This document shows positions 552 through 53,013 of a DNA stretch of 64,000 nucleotides, piece after piece (the stretch's first letter is position 1; every line of letters starts with the position of its first letter). The translations under genes were made by a program, and so were the position numbers. Source of the DNA: a phage; assembly GCA_036930585.1 (NCBI GenBank), contig GCA_036930585.1_3066.1, one strand, 5' to 3'. A model generated the notes under the pieces. That model had not been told where the DNA came from, made no database searches, and saw nothing but the letters and a program-made list of their open reading frames with translations.

Positions 552-1054
552 TTAAAAGTATTTTTTAAAACTCATCATAACTTTATCATCAACATCATTA
601 TCAATCTGTGCAACAAGATAAGATGACAGTTCTACTTCTTGTGGCGCTGATTGAACATTATCAGAATTAAGATATTCACGAATCCAAGGATATGGATGTT
701 TAACCGGAGCATCGGTAATTGGGCATGGAAGACCACACTGTTTCATACGAGATACAGTTAAGTAATCAATAAAGCTCCACATGCTATTTGTATTTAATCC
801 AGGAACATCGCCATCTTTAAATAAATGAACTGCCCAATCTTTTTCTTGGCGGTTAACTTCCATGAAAATATCAACTGCTTCTTGTTCGCACTCTTGAGCA
901 ATTTTAACCCATTCATCGCCATCAGTGCCAAGTTGAAGTTGACGAATAATATATTGGGTGCCTTTAAGGTGAAGCTGCTCATCACGAGCAATGAACTTCA
1001 TAATCTTGGCATTACCTTCCATGATTTCCATGTTCTTATGGAAGTTAAAGGTAC
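552..1054 (-). CDS. nrdB: Ribonucleotide reductase small subunit NrdB, exon 2
   Basis: MEIMEGNAKIMKFIARDE... C-terminal half of class Ia R2; joins exon 1 across intron to give ...FYVSFAC|TFNFHKNMEIMEG. Confidence 0.85.
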
Positions 1055-1648
1055 CGTTATGTTCGATTGAGCTCGCTAATTCTCAACCCGTTCTCTTATG
1101 AACTGCTACATATTACTATGCAGACCAGACTATATCACAATCCCAGAGGGATTCTCCCCATTTCGAGTCGCTTGACCCTACGTCCGAAGACTAGTCGTTG
1201 AACCTTGCTTTGCAATTGTCGCCGTGCCATCGTTTATATGTTGATGGTGATAAATCTTTCTTATCACAATATGGACAATTCAATTGAATTCTATTTGGAT
1301 TTAATTTACATCTGTCATTATGTTTTAGATAAAATCCAGGACATTTACCAATGTGACCGCAGAAATCACATGTGATTTCTTTTTGTGCAGGATGGGTCCC
1401 GTTCTTAACCATTTCTAATGTTTTTGCTGATGTTCTTTTCTTATGGTCTTCCATCAGAATCTTTAGGTATAGGTCCGTTAGCATCTATCCAAATTTTTCT
1501 ATAGTTCAATTGTGCATCCTCTTAAAAGTATAATCATATTATACTAATTAAAGGTGCAAGCAAAACCTTGGCTGCTAGTTTTCCTATAAAGGACTTTCCA
1601 GCAATTAAAGGAGTTTTCGATAAACGTTACCGTTTAAAGGCGCATTTT
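1055..1648 (-). mobile_element. Group I intron in nrdB (594 nt) carrying a truncated homing endonuclease ORF
   Basis: Exon 1 ends in U (1649), intron ends in G (1055); splice restores the Cys codon and reading frame of conserved NrdB. Confidence 0.8.
1191..1484 (-). pseudogene. Intron-encoded endonuclease remnant (I-TevIII-like, 97 aa, zinc-finger part only)
   Basis: ORF inside nrdB intron with CxxC...CxxC motifs but no HNH catalytic region. Confidence 0.55.
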
Positions 1649-2324
1649 ACGCAAAAGATACATAAAAACGAATAGCTTCCAATGCATTGATTACATGGAG
1701 GCAAAGATAAAGAGACTTCATTAGTGCTCGTTTAGCTTCGGCTTCTTGTTTAATAGCTCGATTTAAACGAAAATCAGCATCAGGAGATTCTTTAGCTAGT
1801 TCTACAAATTCTTTAGCGTTTTCCCATTCACGGGTTTTAATCAGAACGTCATCATAATAACGTCCAATGGATTCAGCACGTTTCATGATAGCTTCATCTA
1901 ATACAATCTCATCAAATACCTTAGCAGGGTCATTGAACAAGTTACGCATGATATGGGTATATGAACGACTGTGAATAGTTTCGCTAAAAGTCCATGTAGC
2001 AACCCATGTATCAAGGCTTGGATCTGAAAGCAATGGCATAAGTACAGCAGACGGCGCACGCCCCTGGATGGAGTCTAACAATGACTGGTATTTTAAGTTA
2101 TTGATAAATATAGATTTTTGATGTTCTGGGAGCTTGTTAAATTGTGCAGCATCCATCATTAAGTTTACTTCTTCAGGCCGCCAGAAAAATGATAAAGATC
2201 GCTCAATAAGTTCTTCAAATACCTTATGTCGTTGAATATCATAACGTGCAATTCCAAGACCTGAACCGAAGAACATAGGTTCTGTTAAAACATCAACTGG
2301 ATTTGTATTAAAAACTGTAGACAT
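1649..2324 (-). CDS. nrdB: Ribonucleotide reductase small subunit NrdB, exon 1
   Basis: MSTVFNTNPVDV...EAIRFYVSFA; in-frame TAA immediately after 5' splice site. Confidence 0.85.
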
Positions 2325-2376
2325 TAATTTTTCCTCTTAGTTAATAGTTGGTGACTCGTCCGTGAGTCAAATTATA

Positions 2377-4641
2377 TCATAATTTACACGCTGCACAATC
2401 GTCGGCTTTAGGAGTTTCTATTTCATAATCATCAGTACCAGAACCATCACGGGTATTATGATAATAGAAATTTTTAATGCCATAATACCATCCGTATAAC
2501 ATGTCATCAATCATTATTGACATTGGAACCTTTCCTTTTGGAAAAATCTGCGGGTCATAGTATGTATTCGCTGAAGCTGATTGACATACCCATTTCAGCA
2601 TAATAGCTACCTGCGTAAGATAAGGTTTATTACCTTTCTTAGCTAATTTCCACGTATAATCATAGAGGTCTATGTTATGCTCAATATTGGGCACGACTTG
2701 ATTAAAGGAACCCTCTTTTGATTCTTTAACAGAGACTGGTCCACGTGGAGGCTCGATACCGTTTGTACTGTTAGAAACTTGGGAAGATGACTCACATGGC
2801 ATAAGTGCTGATAATGTGCTATTACGGATGCCAAAGAGCTTAAGGTCTTCCCGCAGCGACGACCAGTCACAAACGTATTTTGGAGCTGCGATTTGGTCAA
2901 TCTTTTTATTGTACCAGTCGATAGGTAATTCGCCTCGAGACCAACGAGTGTCTGAATAATATTCGCAAGGTCCTTTTTCTTTGGCGAGCTTAATGGATGC
3001 TTTAATGAGCCCATACTGTAATCTCTCAAATAGTTCATGTGTTAAATCGTTAGCATCTTCGTAAGAAGCAAAGTTACTTGCCAGCCAAGCTGCATAGTTA
3101 GTAACACCTACACCGAGGTTTCGACGCTTTTTAGCTTTTAAAGCTTCTGGAACTGGATATCCTTGGTAATCCAACAGATTATCAAGAGCACGAACTTGAA
3201 CTTCTGCCAATTCATTAATTTTATCTTGGTCTTGCCAGTCAAAATTATCTAGTACGAATGCAGAGAGAGTACACAATCCAATTTCAGCATCAGGACTATT
3301 CACATCATTTGTTGGAATAGCAATTTCACAGCACAAGTTACTCTGGCGAATAGGTGCCTTTTCACGAATAAACGGAGTATAGTTATTCGTATTATCAATG
3401 AACTGCACATAAATCCTTGCCGTTCCTGAACGTTCAGTCATGAGCAATTCAAATAGTTCACGGGCTTTAATACGCTTTTTGCGAATATTAGGGTCTTTTT
3501 CTGCTGCTTCGTATAATTCACGGAAACGGTCTTGGTCTTTAAAATAAGAATAATAAAGCTCTCCACCCATTTCATGCGGACTGAACAAAGTAATGTAATC
3601 ATTCTTTCCGAATCGTTCCATCATTAGGTCATTCAGTTGAACGCCATAATCCATATGACGGATACGGTTTTCTTCTACGCCTTTGTTATTTTTCAAAACG
3701 AGAAGATTTTCAACTTCCAAATGCCAAATAGGATAATAAGCAGTAGCAGCGCCGCCACGAATTCCACCCTGTGAGCATGATTTAACAGCAGTCTGAAAAT
3801 GTTTCCAAAAAGGAATAACACCAGTATGGCGTACTTCACCTGTGCCAATCTTAGAACCTTCAGCACGAATCATACCAACGTTAATACCAATTCCAGCGCG
3901 TTTAGAGATATATTCAACAATTGAAGCAGAAGCCTTATTGATAGACTTCAGTGAATCGCCTGCCTCAATAACAACACATGAACTAAACTGCCGAGTTGGA
4001 GTACGGCAACCAGCCATAATAGGAGTTGGTAATGAAATCTGTCGAGTAGATACCGCTTCATAAAAACGGATAACATGTTTTAATCTATCAACAGGTTCAT
4101 CTTGATGCAATGCCATTCCAATAGTCATAAATGCAAACTGTGGAGTTTCATAAATTTGACCAGTGGTTTTATCTTTAACTAGATATTTTTCTTTTAATTG
4201 CATCGCCCCGGAATAAGTAAATTCCATATCCCGCTCGTGCTTAATTTTTGATTCTAAAAATGTAATTTCTTCTGCTGAATATTTTGACAATAATTCAGGG
4301 TCATATTTACCTTCATTTACACAGTAAGAAATATGGTCAATAAATGAACGTGGTTCATACTGCCCATAAACATGCTTACGAAGAGCAAACATTAAACAGC
4401 GTGCAGCTACATATTGATAATCAGGCTCTTCAACCGAAATAGAATTCGCAGCGGCCTTAATGACAATAGTCTGAATGTCATCAGTTGTCATTCCATCACG
4501 GAGATATGATTTAATATTTTCATATAATTCATAAGGATCTACTGATGTTCCCTCAGATGCCCAAGATAAAACTTTAATAATTTTTTGCGGGTCAAAGCTC
4601 TGAGAAACACCACTACTTTTGATAACATTAATTAATTGCAT
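2377..4641 (-). CDS. nrdA: Ribonucleotide reductase large subunit NrdA (754 aa)
   Basis: 754-aa ORF with class Ia R1 features (C-terminal CxxC, active-site region); length matches T4 NrdA. Confidence 0.95.
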   Translation of the reverse strand: MQLINVIKSSGVSQSFDPQKIIKVLSWASEGTSVDPYELYENIKSYLRDGMTTDDIQTIVIKAAANSISVEEPDYQYVAARCLMFALRKHVYGQYEPRSFIDHISYCVNEGKYDPELLSKYSAEEITFLESKIKHERDMEFTYSGAMQLKEKYLVKDKTTGQIYETPQFAFMTIGMALHQDEPVDRLKHVIRFYEAVSTRQISLPTPIMAGCRTPTRQFSSCVVIEAGDSLKSINKASASIVEYISKRAGIGINVGMIRAEGSKIGTGEVRHTGVIPFWKHFQTAVKSCSQGGIRGGAATAYYPIWHLEVENLLVLKNNKGVEENRIRHMDYGVQLNDLMMERFGKNDYITLFSPHEMGGELYYSYFKDQDRFRELYEAAEKDPNIRKKRIKARELFELLMTERSGTARIYVQFIDNTNNYTPFIREKAPIRQSNLCCEIAIPTNDVNSPDAEIGLCTLSAFVLDNFDWQDQDKINELAEVQVRALDNLLDYQGYPVPEALKAKKRRNLGVGVTNYAAWLASNFASYEDANDLTHELFERLQYGLIKASIKLAKEKGPCEYYSDTRWSRGELPIDWYNKKIDQIAAPKYVCDWSSLREDLKLFGIRNSTLSALMPCESSSQVSNSTNGIEPPRGPVSVKESKEGSFNQVVPNIEHNIDLYDYTWKLAKKGNKPYLTQVAIMLKWVCQSASANTYYDPQIFPKGKVPMSIMIDDMLYGWYYGIKNFYYHNTRDGSGTDDYEIETPKADDCAACKL

Positions 4642-4775
4642 AAGTCCTCAACTTGAAAATCGTCTTTAAACAATCGGTTAACTATATGAGCTATTATATC
4701 ACCATGACACGGCTTTGGTTTACATGTGCATCCTAGCCTCATTCCACGTAAAGGCTCTAAATGTGCTTTAGTTAT

Positions 4776-4958
4776 TTATCCGGATTTAATTCGACGTATA
4801 AAATCTTTTTTGAATAATTCAATGGCAGCCTCCCGGCTGCCAGCATCTTTACCGACGTAATTTCCCCAAAATGTACCACGGTGAATATTAACATCAAAGT
4901 CGGATTTATATTTATTCACTACCTGGCATAGACGGCCCGCGCGGTGATAATTCGTCAT
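4776..4958 (-). CDS. Hypothetical small protein (DUF4326-like core [12 protein letters not shown])
   Basis: 60-aa ORF overlapping the next ORF by 47 nt in another frame. Confidence 0.45.
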
Positions 4959-5175
4959 ATTGTTTTTCCGTTAAAACAGTAATATCATAGTAACAATCAG
5001 AAGAAGTTTTAACTGTAGAAATTTTATTATCAAAATACTCACGAGTCATTTTATGAGTATAATATTTTTTGCCATAAATGATAATAGGCTGATTTGGTCC
5101 TGGAACTTCTAACTCACTTGGGTTAGGAAGTGTAAAAAGAACTACACCAGAAGTATCTTTAAATCGTAAAATCAT
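4912..5175 (-). CDS. Hypothetical protein (87 aa)
   Basis: ORF between td and nrdA; no recognisable motif. Confidence 0.45.
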
Positions 5176-5198
5176 AAATCCTCACAATTAAATTAAAA

Positions 5199-5510
5199 TT
5201 ACACCGCCATTTTTCCTTTCAAGACGCCGTGGGACTGATAATCTTTGAGAACGAAATCTTTAGGCCTGAGTTTAAGAATGTATTCCAATTGTTCTTTAGT
5301 AGAAAGATAGCGGAATTTATAAGGCAATCCGCCTATTACCAGTTCACAAAGCTCTTTAGGTTCACGACGCAAAATTTCTTTACATTGTTCTACGTGATTC
5401 ATATAGATGTGAGTATTACCACCGGAAAATATCAAATCTCCCGGAATAAGATTACACATCTTAGCTACAATATGAACTAACGTAGCATATGATGCAATAT
5501 TAAATGGAAG
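5199..5510 (-). CDS. td: Thymidylate synthase, exon 2
   Basis: LPFNIASYATLVHIVAKMCNL...GGNTHIYMNHVEQ, C-terminal part of ThyA-type TS. Confidence 0.9.
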   Translation of the reverse strand, partial: LPFNIASYATLVHIVAKMCNLIPGDLIFSGGNTHIYMNHVEQCKEILRREPKELCELVIGGLPYKFRYLSTKEQLEYILKLRPKDFVLKDYQSHGVLKGKMAV

Positions 5511-47427: not shown

Positions 47428-48240
<813 letters not shown>

Positions 48241-48342: not shown

Positions 48343-48543
48343 ATGGCACAAAAATTAATGGCACTTGTTAATGCCATCAAAGGTAATAAAAAACGTATAG
48401 CTTTTACTATTTCTGCTATGATAGGAATTTTACTTTGGAATTTTGTTTTATCGCCAGTTGCTATTGCTCATGGTGTTAGTATTCCAGTAGTTACTCTTGA
48501 TACATTCGTAGATCTAGCATTTGCTTTAGTTGGGTTAATTTAA
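48343..48543 (+). CDS. Small membrane protein (66 aa), opposite orientation to flanking early genes
   Basis: AAAGGAGG SD 6 nt before ATG; two hydrophobic segments; stop overlaps gene 61 stop. Confidence 0.5.
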   Translation: MAQKLMALVNAIKGNKKRIAFTISAMIGILLWNFVLSPVAIAHGVSIPVVTLDTFVDLAFALVGLI

Positions 48544-49571
48544 ATCTTGGCATATTTAGATAACCGCATTTTAGCCATTAACCCCTGGGCAATATTATTT
48601 TTCATATATTCCACAATTTGTTCAGGGGTTGCACCTTCCTTTCTAATCATATCATTAACATCTTTTGATTTCCAGGGAGATTTATCCCAAAACATAACCC
48701 TTTCTCCTGCATCAACTAATTTAGTCATTCGCTTGATAGTGTCAGGGTGACGAGGTTCATTATCTAAAACCCACACTCGTCTATCTTTAAATGGAACAAC
48801 TTCTAGGTCTAATTGACCACCCGTAATAGCTATACCATTTTCAATAAAAAGTGAATCTATAGGTCCTTCTAGAACATATACATCACCATCTTTAACTCGT
48901 TCGACTCCATATATTTTTGTTGCCTCAGGATAAGCTTTGATGGTGATATATTTTTGAGGAGCATCTTTCTTTAATGCACGTCCTTGAAAAGACTCAGCTT
49001 TTCCGTTAGCATTATAAATTGGAATAACAAGACGAGGCTCAGGTGTTTCCTTTTTATATGTTCCTGGAGCTATACTATTAACTAATTTAGGCCATTCAGT
49101 TGTAAACCAAAGATATTTCCATTTATCCTTTGGAATACAACGAGCTTTTACATATTTTATAATTGGATGGTCTTCCGCCAATTTATCTAATCTGATGCAT
49201 GACGGAAGAGATTTAATTATTTTCTTCTCAGGTTGTTTAGGAAGTTCTTTAGGTTTTTCTACTGGACGACTTTTACCTTTTTCTTTTCTTATTTCAAAGA
49301 TATACTCACGATATAAATCAGGTTCAAACTCCTTTAAATATATTCCGATTGGTGCATGATAGTTACAGTTATAACAATGAATATTTCCTTCATTATTATC
49401 ATCGCCATAATACCATCCACGGGCTTTATTTTGATCGGTTTTTGAATCTCCACAAACGGGACATCTAAACCGTAATTTAAAAGTTGAACTATTATTTACT
49501 TGTGCGAATTTAGGTAAATGAGCCAATGCACGGTATGCAAACTCATTATCAATCCAAGGTATTGATGACAT
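48540..49571 (-). CDS. 61: DNA primase gp61
   Basis: 343-aa ORF with N-terminal zinc ribbon (CPVCGDS...CYNC) and TOPRIM region. Confidence 0.95.
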   Translation of the reverse strand: MSSIPWIDNEFAYRALAHLPKFAQVNNSSTFKLRFRCPVCGDSKTDQNKARGWYYGDDNNEGNIHCYNCNYHAPIGIYLKEFEPDLYREYIFEIRKEKGKSRPVEKPKELPKQPEKKIIKSLPSCIRLDKLAEDHPIIKYVKARCIPKDKWKYLWFTTEWPKLVNSIAPGTYKKETPEPRLVIPIYNANGKAESFQGRALKKDAPQKYITIKAYPEATKIYGVERVKDGDVYVLEGPIDSLFIENGIAITGGQLDLEVVPFKDRRVWVLDNEPRHPDTIKRMTKLVDAGERVMFWDKSPWKSKDVNDMIRKEGATPEQIVEYMKNNIAQGLMAKMRLSKYAKI

Positions 49572-49573
49572 TT

Positions 49574-49738
49574 TTACTCTTCTTTTTCTTTAGATTCCTC
49601 TTTTTTCTTTTTAGGAATCTGTTCAGGACCTTTATTTACTACAGCGCCTGACGTTGTTCCAGTAGAGATATTTTCAGGACTACCACCTGAATCTCCAGCG
49701 ACCATATCTTCTTTGATAAATTCTTTATATGTTTTCAT
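49574..49738 (-). CDS. Hypothetical protein (61.1-like, 54 aa)
   Basis: MKTYKEFIKEDMVAGDSGG...; TAATATG junction with upstream gene. Confidence 0.45.
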   Translation of the reverse strand: MKTYKEFIKEDMVAGDSGGSPENISTGTTSGAVVNKGPEQIPKKKKEESKEKEE

Positions 49739-49784
49739 ATTAACCTCTATTCATAAAAGCATTAAAAATTTGGTCATCAATAGA
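49736..49784 (-). repeat. 49-bp direct repeat, copy 1 (3' end of the 61.2-paralog plus RBS/start of 61.1)
   Basis: 37-nt perfect match plus 12 nt with 2 mismatches to 50094..50142. Confidence 0.85.
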
Positions 49785-50096
49785 TGGCGCAGTAATATTT
49801 TCTGCATCATTTAGCAAATCATTAATTTCATCAGATAGCATAACACACGTACCTTTATTTCCTGTAATTGTTACTGCACAATTACGAACGTTTTCTTTAT
49901 CAAATTTTAGGTTAATATTTTCATAGTGAAAATCCTTTAATGCCGAATATATCTTTAAAATGAAATTGTCTTTTACTACAATAAACCCAACCTCACTATT
50001 AAAACGCGGTTCATGGAAACTGTAATAAACCTTTTCATCTATAAAATCGTATGAAATTTTTTCCATTTTTAAATATGAAAATTCAGAACTATACAT
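49740..50096 (-). CDS. 61.2-like single-domain paralog (118 aa)
   Basis: Homologous to C-terminal half of 61.2 (…EVGFIVVKDNFILKIY…) and identical last 13 aa SIDDQIFNAFMNRG. Confidence 0.6.
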   Translation of the reverse strand: MYSSEFSYLKMEKISYDFIDEKVYYSFHEPRFNSEVGFIVVKDNFILKIYSALKDFHYENINLKFDKENVRNCAVTITGNKGTCVMLSDEINDLLNDAENITAPSIDDQIFNAFMNRG

Positions 50097-50142
50097 ATTA
50101 ACCTCTATTCATAAAAGCATTAAAAATTTGATCGTCAATAGA
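50094..50142 (-). repeat. 49-bp direct repeat, copy 2 (3' end of 61.2 plus RBS/start of the paralog)
   Basis: See copy 1. Confidence 0.85.
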
Positions 50143-50730
50143 AACTTTTACTTTAGGCTGTTCTTCAAACGGTAATTCATATCCACATATTACAATTTTG
50201 TGATCGATACCAAAATACACAGAAGCAATATGATTAATGATGTTTTCAGTAAAGTCTAAATTAACATCAATATCTTTTTGACCACAGCCCAAAGGATAAA
50301 TAATGCGAGTAATTCGATTATCTTTAACAAATATTCCACCGACATACTCTGTGCTGCGTTTAAAGTTTACACGTTTCCTAAATGAAAAATATTCAGGTTC
50401 TTTATGGGCTCGACTCATAGGGCTTAAAGTGTATTCCGAATATGAAATATCAAATCCTACACCTTCAATATGAGCCAAAGTGTCATGATTAAACCAATTA
50501 TAATCGTATGCCAAATCCATTAAATTGTAATATGTGAAAGGCACCGGATTAACATCATATGTTGTACCTTTAAAATCTGCCCAGGCAACGATTTCGTTAT
50601 CTTTAACAATTACAAAAATTGTGCCAATAAGATATCCACGGTTATTTTCATCGGGCGTTATATTATAACATTGTGCATCAGGAAATTTACCGTATTTAAA
50701 CGGTGGATTTTTGTGCATATAATAAATCAT
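50098..50730 (-). CDS. 61.2: Gene 61.2 protein (two-domain, 210 aa)
   Basis: Two internally repeated ~100-aa domains each with G(I/F)(F/V)VKDN motif; position next to sp. Confidence 0.65.
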   Translation of the reverse strand: MIYYMHKNPPFKYGKFPDAQCYNITPDENNRGYLIGTIFVIVKDNEIVAWADFKGTTYDVNPVPFTYYNLMDLAYDYNWFNHDTLAHIEGVGFDISYSEYTLSPMSRAHKEPEYFSFRKRVNFKRSTEYVGGIFVKDNRITRIIYPLGCGQKDIDVNLDFTENIINHIASVYFGIDHKIVICGYELPFEEQPKVKVSIDDQIFNAFMNRG

Positions 50731-50731
50731 A

Positions 50732-51025
50732 TTATTCGCCTGTGATTTCGGTTACGATATTTTTATTATTGAAGTTTTTATCACAATACAGAACGTAATT
50801 ATACTGCATTACACCACCAGACTTAAGCTGTTTTTGTACTTCAGCTTTCATTTCAGGACGATCACGTTCAACGATATTCATAATATCCGCTTCAATTTGA
50901 GTTTCAACTTCAGTCTGATCTGCAGTCATAGACCATTCGCACAAATCTTTGTCATAACCCGCCATAGCAGGCTGAGCAGCGCAAGAAGATAAAGCAAAAA
51001 TTGCAGCAAAGATAAATTTTTTCAT
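50732..51025 (-). CDS. sp: Spackle (periplasmic inhibitor of superinfecting phage lysozyme)
   Basis: 97-aa ORF with signal peptide MKKFIFAAIFALSSCAAQPAMA. Confidence 0.8.
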   Translation of the reverse strand: MKKFIFAAIFALSSCAAQPAMAGYDKDLCEWSMTADQTEVETQIEADIMNIVERDRPEMKAEVQKQLKSGGVMQYNYVLYCDKNFNNKNIVTEITGE

Positions 51026-51085
51026 GATAATCTCCTCAGTAGTTTATGTTTATATAGTATCTCAATTTCCAACAAAAGTAAATAG

Positions 51086-51343
51086 TTATTTTAAAACTTC
51101 TGCATAATCACATGTTACAAACTGTTTCTCTAACTTGGCGATTTTACGAAAGTATCTTTTGCATTGACGAATCTGTCGCTTTGTAGGGCGCACAGCAAAC
51201 TTAATAAATTCCACTCGACCAAATGGAGGGCTTTCTTCTGCCGGAATATCTAATACTAATTCCCACGTATCCGCAATAAGCGCTTTGAATTGCGTATTTT
51301 TCCTGACGTTATACGGAGTAGGTTTAAATAAAACAATATGCAT
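51086..51343 (-). CDS. 61.4: Gene 61.4 protein (85 aa)
   Basis: Start moved to ATG 51343 (TAATATG junction with dmd, GAGGA SD). Confidence 0.55.
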   Translation of the reverse strand: MHIVLFKPTPYNVRKNTQFKALIADTWELVLDIPAEESPPFGRVEFIKFAVRPTKRQIRQCKRYFRKIAKLEKQFVTCDYAEVLK

Positions 51344-51344
51344 A

Positions 51345-51527
51345 TTATCCTCGGCAATCCACTTCACATACCTTCTTGTCATCAATGAAAGCTTTAACTA
51401 GTGCTTTATTAACTTCAGCATATTGAGTAGTAGCCCATTGAACGTCATCTTTCATCATTGTGGTTTCTTTAGTAAACATGCTTTCATTCTTAAACCACCC
51501 CATAAAAACTACCTTTACCAATTCCAT
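51345..51527 (-). CDS. dmd: Dmd (antitoxin against RnlA/LsoA-type toxins)
   Basis: 60-aa ORF MELVKVVFMGWFKNESMFTKE... Confidence 0.85.
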   Translation of the reverse strand: MELVKVVFMGWFKNESMFTKETTMMKDDVQWATTQYAEVNKALVKAFIDDKKVCEVDCRG

Positions 51528-51555
51528 AACAATCTCCTCATTTAACCAACAAGAC

Positions 51556-51586
51556 TACTATACCATAGTCTTGTCAGCTTGTAAAC
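51556..51586 (-). promoter_or_regulatory. T4-type early promoter upstream of dmd
   Basis: Minus strand GTTTACAAGCTGACAAGACTATGGTATAGT. Confidence 0.5.
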
Positions 51587-53013
51587 TAAAATTTTAATTC
51601 ATTTGCCAAAGCATCTAACTGAGCTCGAGTGGATTCATTTCTTTGATAGCGATTCTGTTCAGCCTGAATCTGTTGTGAACCTGCTACTTCACTCACTTCG
51701 GTTGGAGTAGAATCTTGTTCAATTTCTACCCATTTTTGATTTCCTTTTTGAACACCCATCAAAAACTTATTCCACTTATTCTTATCACCATATCGTGATT
51801 TGATTTGCTTAATGAGTTGCTGTTCAGCAGCTGCTAGCTCCTCTGTTTCAATGACCGCAAGCATAAAATCAGCTGTCGCAGGAAGTCCGGCAGACTCTGC
51901 AATATCGCTCATGTTAACATCAGAAGAATCCCAAGCTTGTTTACCAACCTGTGCCGCAGTCCAAAGAACAGTTTCTGTTTCAACAGCCAAAGCACGCAAT
52001 TCCTCTGCAATAGCTTTAACAGTTGTGTAACTGTTTTCTGAATAAACTCTGATGCGACAAGATTTACAAATACCTAGATAGTCGACAATAATGATTGTTG
52101 GAACAAAATTCTTCTTGAGCTTCAATTCGTTTAAAAGTGATCGAAATGTATTAGCATCTGCTCCACCAGTAGGATACTGTTTAACGATTAAACGGCCGAG
52201 AGTAGATTTCTCACGCCATTTTTCCATTTTTCCTTTATATTCAGCGTAAGAAATATGCCCATCATCAATGTCATCAAGAGAAACATCAAGCATGTTAGCG
52301 TCAATACGCTTAGCACAGACTTCTTCTGCCATTTCCATGGAGATATAAAGAACGTTATGACCAAGCTGTAAATAATCCGCTGCTAATGAACAAAGTCCTA
52401 ATGATTTACCAACGTTAACACCAGCCATTAAAACGTTCAGTGTTCCAGTCTCAGCTCCGCCTTTAGTAATTTTGTTTAGAATTCTGAGTTTAAATGGAAC
52501 CTTACGAGCTTTATTCATATAAGATAGCCAACGTGCTTCGTAGTCATCCATCCAATCATGACCAACGTAGCTATCAAATGAAATTGATAATGCTTGACGC
52601 ATGATATCAGGAATAGCACCTACATCTGGCATTTTCTTATTTCGTTTTTCCGGAGGAAGCTCAGCATTGGTTTGAATTTCGATTATTTTAGACGTAGCAT
52701 TAAACATCGCCCTTTGCTGAACATATTTTTCTGTTTCTTTTATTAACCAGCTGTGGTCTTCCGGAGAATCAACTAGTTTTGAAATAAGTGTTTTTACACC
52801 AGAATATTCTGTTTCAGTAAATGAACTATTTTCTAATGCAACATTTAACGCATTAATAGATGGAACGCTATGGTACTCATTAACATGAGATTTAATTAAT
52901 TTGAATGTATTTTTAGCTGGACCACTTTCAAAATATTCTGAATCCATATATGGCCAAACTTTTGAAAAATAAGCTTGATCAAATATGAGATGAGAAAGAA
53001 TAATTTCTACCAC
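51586..53013 (-). CDS. 41: Replicative DNA helicase gp41
   Basis: 475-aa DnaB-family ORF (Walker A GVNVGKS). Confidence 0.95.
   Translation of the reverse strand: MVEIILSHLIFDQAYFSKVWPYMDSEYFESGPAKNTFKLIKSHVNEYHSVPSINALNVALENSSFTETEYSGVKTLISKLVDSPEDHSWLIKETEKYVQQRAMFNATSKIIEIQTNAELPPEKRNKKMPDVGAIPDIMRQALSISFDSYVGHDWMDDYEARWLSYMNKARKVPFKLRILNKITKGGAETGTLNVLMAGVNVGKSLGLCSLAADYLQLGHNVLYISMEMAEEVCAKRIDANMLDVSLDDIDDGHISYAEYKGKMEKWREKSTLGRLIVKQYPTGGADANTFRSLLNELKLKKNFVPTIIIVDYLGICKSCRIRVYSENSYTTVKAIAEELRALAVETETVLWTAAQVGKQAWDSSDVNMSDIAESAGLPATADFMLAVIETEELAAAEQQLIKQIKSRYGDKNKWNKFLMGVQKGNQKWVEIEQDSTPTEVSEVAGSQQIQAEQNRYQRNESTRAQLDALANELKF

Follow-up and report, generated by a model that had tools for sequence, protein, structure and literature searches.

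In phage T4, the gap between genes 41 and 61 holds dmd, tifA, sp, adfA and 61.1 (61.5 to 61.1), a region termed the 'anti-TA island' by Srikant et al. 2022 (PMC9391042), in which dmd-tifA is driven by an early promoter (PMC9391042). T4 Dmd inhibits RnlA/LsoA during infection, and native single-copy TifA of the T4 type overcomes chromosomal toxIN only, not plasmid-borne toxIN (PMC9391042); the substitutions F41S and F41H raise TifA inhibition (PMC10853763). Spackle, the sp product, mediates superinfection exclusion by inhibiting the gp5 lysozyme of T-even phages that attempt to superinfect (PMC7677548). RB69 escape mutants map to AdfA, and the RB69 AdfA R164H allele binds DarT1 (PMC11257639). 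Binding or neutralization of DarT is described only for RB69 AdfA(R164H) and, upon ectopic expression, for T4 AdfA (PMC11257639, PMC11825919). T4 does not need its own AdfA to withstand DarTG1, a task performed by AdfN/gp30.3, and T2 is described as lacking an adfA homologue (PMC11825919).

Accessory-gene island between genes 41 and 61

The window, a 64,000-nt stretch of contig GCA_036930585.1_3066.1, derives from a Tequatrovirus that is about 98% identical at the DNA level to phages TH09 and JLBYU22. The ORF listing places a head-to-tail run of minus-strand ORFs at 49574..51527, between gene 41 (replicative helicase, 51586..53013) and gene 61 (primase, 48540..49571). An initial annotation had described a compact run of small genes upstream of the primase, and the sequence and ORF listing bear this out with exactly the same end coordinates. 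The genes it named, dmd, 61.4, sp, 61.2 and 61.1, are all present, but its count of five is not correct, as a 118-aa ORF at 49740..50096 was missed and the run comprises six genes. What was established here concerns the identity and spacing of the genes, the promoter motifs, the paralogy and the polymorphism among populations; the biochemical functions come from published work on T4, T2 and RB69.

The locus, with its five known genes, is very probably this phage's version of the T-even accessory-gene island. Its synteny with annotated T4, T2, RB69, Ec_O157kw and NR1 supports this identity. The arrangement matches the T4 island in its position between genes 41 and 61, gene order, strand and early promoter, with identities of 98.3, 97.6, 92.8, 76.2 and 94.4% for the dmd, tifA, sp, adfA and 61.1 products, respectively. 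It differs from T4 in carrying the additional 118-aa gene between adfA and 61.1, and in an AdfA N-terminal half that belongs to the RB69-like class rather than the T4 class. Homology searches of the five small proteins matched all of them to dmd, tifA, sp, adfA and 61.1 through Pfam, PHROG, PDB or T4 identity; an NCBIfam scan of all six proteins returned zero matches.

The dmd gene (61.5; 51345..51527, minus strand) encodes a 60-aa RnlA/LsoA inhibitor by homology, which matches Pfam Dmd (PF17587, 1.8e-45; 153.5 bits, cut-off 27) across residues 1–60 of 60, PHROG 2102, and the crystallised T4 protein, PDB 5hy3_B, 'Antitoxin Dmd', at 9.6e-37. A single substitution, T22 for I22, separates it from T4 Dmd. 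The Pfam and PDB matches, together with the inhibition of RnlA by Dmd (PMC9391042), agree with its earlier designation as an antitoxin against RnlA/LsoA; by analogy, the protein would bind and inhibit these RNase toxins.

Directly downstream, tifA (61.4; 51086..51343, minus strand) encodes an 85-aa protein from its ATG, assigned as a ToxN inhibitor by orthology to T4 gp61.4 and matching Pfam DUF7279 at 2.2e-20. Its central basic cluster K55/R56/R59 is retained; the TifA paper (PMC10853763) lists an RB69 TifA mutant K55A/R56A/R59A, which we read as defective in RNA binding. At position 41 it has the Phe of wild-type T4 instead of the strong-inhibitor Ser or His, making the window TifA a weak T4-type allele that is still a member of the TifA family. 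With this F41 allele, it may consequently fail against strongly expressed toxIN. As described for its relatives, TifA would bind ToxN together with RNA, trapping ToxN in an inactive ribonucleoprotein.

The sp gene (61.3; 50732..51025, minus strand) encodes the 97-aa Spackle with a 22-aa signal peptide, matching Pfam T4_Spackle (PF25676, 7.6e-46, 155.1 bits) over residues 1–96 and PDB 6x6o at 3e-59; the mature chain 7cn6 aligns with residues 23–97. By analogy with T4, this protein would be exported to the periplasm and, when another T-even phage superinfects, would block its gp5 tail lysozyme. The last gene, 61.1 (49574..49738, minus strand), encodes 54 aa with a Lys/Glu-rich C-terminus and matches PHROG 1823 at 2.4e-33, with no match in the Pfam search. 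A 55-aa homologue occurs in the Gaprivervirus ECML-359, with the N-terminal ~42 aa conserved.

The 61.2 gene (adfA; 50098..50730, minus strand) encodes a 210-aa anti-DarT factor A by homology, matching Pfam AdfA (PF23813) at 2.1e-137 and 455.8 bits (cut-off 27) from end to end, residues 1–210 against profile positions 1–211. The first ~56 aa diverge from T4. Alignment with RB69 and T4 places the N-terminal half in the RB69-like class, one of two allele classes of this half among phage records, and the C-terminal half with T4. His167 aligns with R164 of RB69 and with the T4 His. On this likeness, AdfA would bind a DarT-type DNA ADP-ribosyltransferase. An internal duplication of AdfA was considered and is not established, since hhalign comparison of the N-terminal half with the C-terminal half or the 118-aa family gave a probability of only 4–12%. 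Beyond a VKDNxI hairpin motif and a comparable order of predicted secondary-structure elements, these comparisons show nothing in common.

The roles given in the initial annotation for 61.2 (anti-DarT) and 61.4 (anti-ToxN) are found in the literature under the names AdfA (PMC11825919, PMC9391042) and TifA (PMC9391042, PMC10853763). The label 'counter-defence cluster' is too broad: Spackle acts in phage-versus-phage exclusion (PMC7677548), and 61.1 has no known function. Because the functions of 61.2 and 61.4 and the name 'anti-TA island' are already in print, the cluster is as such a published and ordinary one. The sole addition to it is the sixth gene, related to the anti-DarT factor and half as long.

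Promoters and gene junctions

Ahead of dmd lies a T4-type early promoter (51557..51585, minus strand) composed of a −35 box TTTACA (51585..51580), a 17-nt spacer and an extended −10 element TG-TATAGT (51562..51557), in accordance with the early promoter first proposed at this site. It is the top sigma-70-like match of the region in the promoter scan (10 of 12 positions, with the upstream TG). Its hexamers and spacer are unchanged in T4, the 58-nt 41–dmd intergenic region differing between T4 and the window by 1 nt downstream of the −10 box. A 15-bp hairpin (51544..51579, minus strand) at the 3′ end of gene 41 overlaps the spacer and −10 box of this promoter, folding as RNA at −20.4 kcal/mol (z −4.5 against shuffles). 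From this overlap we infer a composite promoter/stem-loop of PeSL type. Both the notion of PeSLs and the early consensus of T4/PST, TTTACW-N17-TAYWAT, are drawn from PMC4122927. The 41–dmd gap resembles the PeSL cassettes described for T4-like phages (Arbiol 2010; Comeau 2014, PMC4122927) in presenting TTTACA-N17-TATAGT with an embedded 15-bp hairpin, while departing from the consensus at one position of the −10 box.

The 60-nt gap between tifA and sp likewise fits this consensus, with an early-type promoter at 51054..51082 (minus strand) consisting of TTTACT, a 17-nt spacer and TACTAT. It scores 12 of 12 against the T4/PST consensus, compared with 11 of 12 for the promoter ahead of dmd, and falls below the threshold of the generic sigma-70 scan. 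The site is identical in Ec_O157kw, carries 1–2 substitutions in T4 and T2, and has a possible counterpart in the promoter downstream of tifA mentioned in PMC9391042. The initial annotation had placed the whole cluster under one early promoter and overlooked this second site, which would divide the cluster into two transcription units rather than one. Judged from the motifs and by analogy with T4, the two T4-type early promoters would give early expression of the coupled units dmd-tifA and sp-adfA-118-aa gene-61.1, the latter probably reading on into gene 61. The terminator scan of the region found no terminator-like site, and an Rfam scan of 49300..51800 with E up to 1 gave zero matches, indicating no known structured RNA in that interval.

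Within these units, the genes are tightly packed. Gaps of 1 nt separate dmd/tifA, sp/adfA, adfA/118-aa ORF and 118-aa ORF/61.1, and all four of these pairs are joined by TAATATG, confirming the stop-start coupling first noticed in the sequence; the 61.1/61 gap is 2 nt. Across the 64-kb window TAATATG is not enriched (21 copies observed against 20.7 expected), with 6 of the 21 copies lying within this 1,954-nt stretch (Poisson P ~6e-5). Genuine stop/start use of the motif occurs six times in the 64 kb, four of them in this cluster. Two of the four cluster junctions lie within a 49-nt direct repeat and are therefore not independent.

A half-size relative of AdfA

The sixth gene (minus strand) belongs to PHROG 4122 ('HY01_0032'-like) and encodes a one-domain paralogue of AdfA's C-terminal half. 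Residues 22–118 match profile positions 113–211 of Pfam AdfA (1.1e-7; 31.9 bits, cut-off 27), the precomputed Pfam label of its homologues is likewise PF23813, and hhalign comparison of the 118-aa family with the AdfA C-terminal half gives a probability of 98.3% (E 2.5e-14). Compared with AdfA as described (PF23813; LeRoux et al. 2022; Johannesman/LeRoux 2025, PMC11825919), the window 210-aa protein aligns end to end with His at the R164 site, whereas the 118-aa protein is alike only in the C-terminal half and tail and lacks the entire N-terminal module, having no counterpart of AdfA residues 1–~100. Without the two-module architecture, it is a family relative rather than an AdfA orthologue. 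The position equivalent to RB69 164 is Asn or Cys, varying by alignment; the Asn-His/Arg pair of AdfA is set against Asn-Cys in the 118-aa protein, and its helix at residues 67–78, equivalent to AdfA 162–173, is divergent. Sequence searches against solved structures returned nothing below E 0.3 for the 118-aa alignment, AdfA or TifA. A 459-aa match (P0024) from the representative search was discarded as a translated tandem repeat.

Homologues of the 118-aa protein were found in 338 phage records, with a length of 117–125 aa and an intact frame in about 300, and are always annotated 'hypothetical', including in T2. The gene is present in T2, RB14 and RB18 and absent from T4. Intact homologues in other genera retain the tail at 41–47% identity. 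The AF2 model (pLDDT 82.8, pTM 0.71) shows one beta-meander/helix domain followed by a tail helix, and a GAGG Shine-Dalgarno sequence lies inside the tail codons of the upstream gene. The intact distant homologues with their tail, the model confidence and the Shine-Dalgarno sequence establish the ORF as a real gene.

A decaying, functionless pseudogene fragment left by partial adfA duplication would account for a match confined to the AdfA C-terminal half, for 3′ ends that agree almost completely over 49 nt, for a G+C (27.2%) below that of every other gene in the cluster and for the absence from T4. We consider this origin highly improbable, as the frame is intact across the records and genera described above, AF2 predicts a compact domain with confidence, and T2 carries the gene alone, without adfA. 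Moreover, identity to the AdfA C-terminal half outside the tail is only 36–40%, which makes the split old, yet the ORF has stayed intact.

As to function, our tentative best guess is that the 118-aa protein may be a toxin-binding inhibitor whose target differs from that of AdfA. AdfN is reported necessary for counter-defence against DarTG1 (PMC11825919), and T2 carries the 118-aa gene without adfA; the 118-aa protein is thus unlikely to be sufficient against DarT1.

A shared tail and a polymorphic slot

AdfA and the 118-aa protein end in a common invariant tail, SIDDQIFNAFMNRG, encoded within the 49-nt direct repeat. Copy 1 (50094..50142) covers the adfA 3′ end and copy 2 (49736..49784) the 3′ end of the 118-aa gene, each comprising the tail, the stop and TAATATG; the copies are 96% identical (repeat search, family D1). 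The slot between sp and 61.1 occurs in three states, namely adfA only, as in T4 (approximately 329 records), the 118-aa gene only, as in T2 (approximately 136), and both, as in this window (approximately 158). The T2 locus (sp, 118-aa gene, 61.1) is alike in its copy of the 118-aa gene, which is 97.5% identical and shares the tail and junction, and unlike in having no full-length adfA; ahead of this copy, after the stop of sp, only a 14-nt tail remnant, TAGAGGTTAGTATG, is left. In Gaprivervirus/VR-type phages, a 145-aa family (PHROG 8539) occupies the same slot after sp with a TAATATG-type junction and the same C-terminal tail, (S/V)(I/V)DDQIFNAFM(N/K)R(G/D). Foldseek matches this family to the predicted 118-aa model at E 1.8e-4; its body is unlike, at 18% identity, and the family is absent from this window.

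The location of the slot between helicase and primase, together with a 61.1 gene that is conserved across genera and stops 2 nt short of gene 61, could mean that the role of adfA, the 118-aa gene and 61.1 lies in replication or in the action of primase and helicase, and not in evading host defence. This is improbable for adfA and the slot, since adfA is found in 13 of 17 Tevenvirinae (PMC11257639) and the slot is polymorphic, unlike core replication genes, and since AdfA(R164H) binds DarT1 and the RB69 escape mutants map there (PMC11257639). These points bear on adfA and the slot, and 61.1 could still fit a replication role.

The shared tail admits two roles. It is possible, though we regard it as rather doubtful, that the tail with TAATATG is mainly a DNA-level boundary of recombination cassettes, analogous to PeSL shuffling, and not a functional protein motif, such that AdfA-family modules are swapped, deleted or stacked at the tail DNA. 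The existence of three slot states and the 14-nt remnant in T2 are in line with such exchange, and crossover between the 49-nt repeats would yield exactly the T4 arrangement; T4 also recombines readily at short homologies (PMC9391042), and T(A/G)ATATG or TAAAATG directly follows every tail-bearing gene found. On the protein side, the tail is predicted as an amphipathic helix, is invariant in homologues of 18–47% identity, and is maintained in ECML-359 although its two tails differ at several synonymous positions. Conservation of the protein sequence while synonymous sites vary, together with the predicted helix, indicates that protein-level selection is present. The two roles, protein motif and cassette boundary, are not exclusive. 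Derivation of the T4 arrangement by deletion of the 118-aa gene was also considered from two synonymous tail differences; this direction is not inferable, because RB69, which has no 118-aa gene, also carries the GATGACCAA variant.

Taken as a whole, these features allow a speculative interpretation in which the slot holds a small, T-even-restricted modular inhibitor superfamily with three architectures, AdfA of ~210 aa, the 118-aa type and the 145-aa type. Each member would combine a fast-diverging beta-meander 'specificity' domain with the invariant amphipathic C-terminal helix DDQIFNAFMNRG, and the DNA encoding this helix would in addition contain the next gene's start and ribosome-binding site, supplying homology for cassette gain and loss. 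The 118-aa protein would then be an anti-toxin factor not described before, directed for instance at a DarT variant or at DarTG2, to which T-even phages have a counter-measure.

The cluster is another instance of a published pattern, in which T-even phages stack small toxin-antitoxin inhibitors beside replication genes. If the modular-inhibitor interpretation is true, T2 would have a member of the AdfA family after all, at odds with the published statement. The relatives of the 118-aa protein form a delimited group of anti-defence candidates that can be put to the test, and three of their neighbours in the locus already act in this way. The three-state slot could explain host-range differences among otherwise near-identical therapeutic Tequatrovirus isolates.

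Gene order between helicase and primase

The window belongs to a Tequatrovirus (T4-like phage). Its ORF listing and sequence show six minus-strand ORFs flanked by replicative helicase gene 41 (51586..53013) on one side and primase gene 61 (48540..49571) on the other. The dmd gene (51345..51527, 60 aa) is assigned by Pfam (1.8e-45), 98.3% identity to T4 and PDB 5hy3_B (9.6e-37), and 61.4/tifA (51086..51343, 85 aa from its ATG) by Pfam DUF7279 and 97.6% identity to T4. Spackle, the product of sp (50732..51025, 97 aa), matches Pfam (7.6e-46), T4 (92.8% identity) and PDB 6x6o (3e-59); its alignment to the mature chain 7cn6 starts at residue 23, which fits a signal peptide of 22 residues. An end-to-end Pfam match to 'Anti-DarT factor A' (2.1e-137) identifies 61.2/adfA (50098..50730, 210 aa), while 61.1 (49574..49738, 54 aa) is placed by PHROG 1823 and 94.4% identity to T4, with no family returned by Pfam. 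These matches support all five gene identities of the initial annotation, which correctly recognised a real, correctly placed and already published locus, with a mostly correct interpretation. Its outer coordinates, 49574 to 51527, need no correction; its gene count is five where six are found. The sixth, a 118-aa ORF (49740..50096) with a partial AdfA profile match, has no counterpart in T4, which carries only five genes here, and is labelled hypothetical or 'HY01_0032'-like in related phages. Phages TH09 and JLBYU22 share 98% identity with the surrounding 2.3-kb stretch, which matches 665 phage records. G+C content dips within 49740..50730: adfA has 31.6% and the 118-aa gene 27.2%, compared with 34-37% for the adjoining genes.

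Other phages carry additional genes in this island. RB69 (locus 2093..5399) has a larger 41/61 interval with imm and imm.1 adjoining sp and four extra small ORFs, and in Gaprivervirus ECML-359 (locus 948..3062) a 105-aa ORF lies upstream of dmd while a 63-aa, RB69ORF033c-like ORF follows the AdfA-family genes, making the island a hot spot of accessory genes in general. Superinfection-exclusion genes are clustered in the RB69 interval. Beyond gene 61, a plus-strand, convergent 66-aa hydrophobic ORF (48343..48543) overlaps the 3' end of the primase gene by 4 nt; the Ec_O157kw, T2 and KRT47 annotations call it hypothetical or a predicted membrane protein, and T4 carries no annotation for it. The dam methyltransferase ORF (47428..48231, minus strand, 267 aa) ends in an aberrant tail of ~40 residues, and the adjacent frame encodes 31 residues that we take to be the normal T4 Dam C-terminus. 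Together these imply a 1-nt indel near 47520 within the A-run of TCTAAAAATATAATG, which may be a genuine frameshift variant or an error in sequencing the homopolymer.

The 118-aa gene and its polymorphic slot

Judged by sequence, the 118-aa gene is an overlooked sixth member of the cluster belonging to the AdfA family. Its product matches the AdfA profile at positions 113-211 only (31.9 bits; Pfam cut-off 27 bits) and aligns to the C-terminal half of AdfA with an hhalign probability of 98.3% (E 2.5e-14). The last 14 residues, SIDDQIFNAFMNRG, are exactly alike in both proteins and are encoded within a 49-nt direct repeat whose copies are 96% identical. Its fold is predicted with confidence by AF2 (pLDDT 82.8, pTM 0.71) as a five-stranded β-meander, helix, strand and helix, after which the shared C-terminal tail makes a terminal helix that packs poorly. 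It has very few relatives: among 1.84 billion cluster representatives, only three 118-125-aa clusters, AdfA itself and a repeat protein discarded as spurious were matched. A structure search against predicted viral structures returns only family members, of 118, 157 and 212 aa, along with a 145-aa protein of the family.

Divergence over the first ~56 residues, which resemble RB69 AdfA, holds the window's AdfA to only 76% identity with T4. The AdfA N-terminal half falls into two classes in phage records, about 255 at >=88% identity and about 230 at 60-65%, and the window's gene thus joins an RB69-class N-module to a T4-like C-module. The AdfA model (pLDDT 71.8) contains two β-meander-plus-helix modules followed by the same tail helix as the 118-aa model; sequence evidence that the modules are duplicates is not significant by hhalign.

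The interval from sp to 61.1 exists in three states: adfA only (T4, KRT47), the 118-aa gene only (T2, described as lacking an adfA homologue; PMC11825919), and both (the window, TH09, AR1, Ec_O157kw and NR1). Across 50,697 phage records, duplicates included, the AdfA N-half occurs in 487, the 118-aa gene at >=90% identity in about 294 and the adfA/118-aa junction in 158, giving roughly 329 records with adfA alone, 136 with the paralogue alone and 158 with both. The T4 layout is precisely what a crossover between the two 49-nt repeats would produce. In T2, a 14-nt remnant of the tail (TAGAGGTTAGTATG) follows the sp stop and precedes the 118-aa gene, the trace that loss of adfA at short homology should leave. 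The tail SNPs do not tell in which direction these events ran. A third tail-bearing type, of ~145 aa (PHROG 8539), occupies this slot as well, as seen at the ECML-359 locus and in viral contigs scanned with a degenerate pattern, and T(A/G)ATATG or TAAAATG comes after every tail. The tail is kept among proteins of only 18-47% identity while synonymous sites of its DNA differ between copies, so selection acts on it at the protein level. The GAGG ribosome-binding site of the next gene also falls within the last codons of the tail (AGA GGT TAA). In IMG/VR contig 3300010279_000005 an AdfA gene precedes a 119-aa paralogue that shares just 75% identity with the 118-aa copy of the window.

Promoters and gene junctions

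The early promoter proposed at 51556..51586 holds up as the best consensus match of the region (TTTACA, 17-nt spacer, TG-TATAGT, 51585..51557), with hexamers and spacer identical to those of the T4 dmd promoter; T4 dmd-tifA is driven by an early promoter (PMC9391042). A 15-bp hairpin in the 41-dmd gap (51544..51579, -20.4 kcal/mol, z -4.5 by RNA folding) overlaps the spacer and -10 box of this promoter. In the tifA-sp gap, TTTACT-N17-TACTAT (51082..51054) fits exactly the T4/PST early 'PeSL' consensus TTTACW-N17-TAYWAT (PMC4122927); this agrees with Srikant et al. (PMC9391042), who mention a promoter downstream of tifA. Scans of the region found neither a terminator-like site nor a match to any Rfam family. 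We infer two early units, dmd-tifA and sp-adfA-(118-aa gene)-61.1, the latter probably reading through into gene 61.

The suggested TAATATG stop-start junction is confirmed at four gene pairs with 1-nt gaps: dmd/tifA, sp/adfA, adfA/118-aa gene and 118-aa gene/61.1. Two of these four are not independent, because both sit in the 49-nt repeat. The remaining gaps measure 2 nt (61.1/61), 58 nt (41/dmd) and 60 nt (tifA/sp). Across the whole window TAATATG occurs at chance frequency (21 observed, 20.7 expected); six copies fall inside the 1,954-nt cluster (Poisson P about 6e-5), and of the six genuine stop/start uses over the 64 kb, four lie there.

Anti-defence functions

The anti-DarT and anti-ToxN roles that the initial annotation gives for 61.2 and 61.4 are correct and published. 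DarTG1 escape mutants of RB69 bear AdfA (61.2) R164H, a variant that binds DarT1 (PMC11257639/PMC11825919), and TifA (61.4) inhibits ToxN (PMC9391042) through binding ToxN and RNA (PMC10853763). RnlA is inhibited by Dmd (PMC9391042). Spackle acts against the gp5 lysozyme of superinfecting phages (PMC7677548) and is not a counter-defence protein.

Window AdfA His167, inside helix 162-173 of the model, aligns with RB69 R164 and would represent the DarT1-binding state. An AdfA allele of the IMG/VR contig (~3568..3955) has Asn, neither His nor Arg, at this position (…NINNIASVYF…). T4 AdfA is dispensable against DarTG1, AdfN (gp30.3) being reported as both necessary and sufficient (PMC11825919). 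Single-copy T4-type tifA beats only chromosomally expressed toxIN (PMC9391042), and window TifA carries Phe at residue 41, the weaker allele, F41S and F41H giving stronger inhibition (PMC10853763).

The sixth gene, the three-state polymorphism with its invariant C-terminal helix and the second promoter are incremental additions to this island rather than surprises, and they supply a concrete candidate for anti-defence screening.
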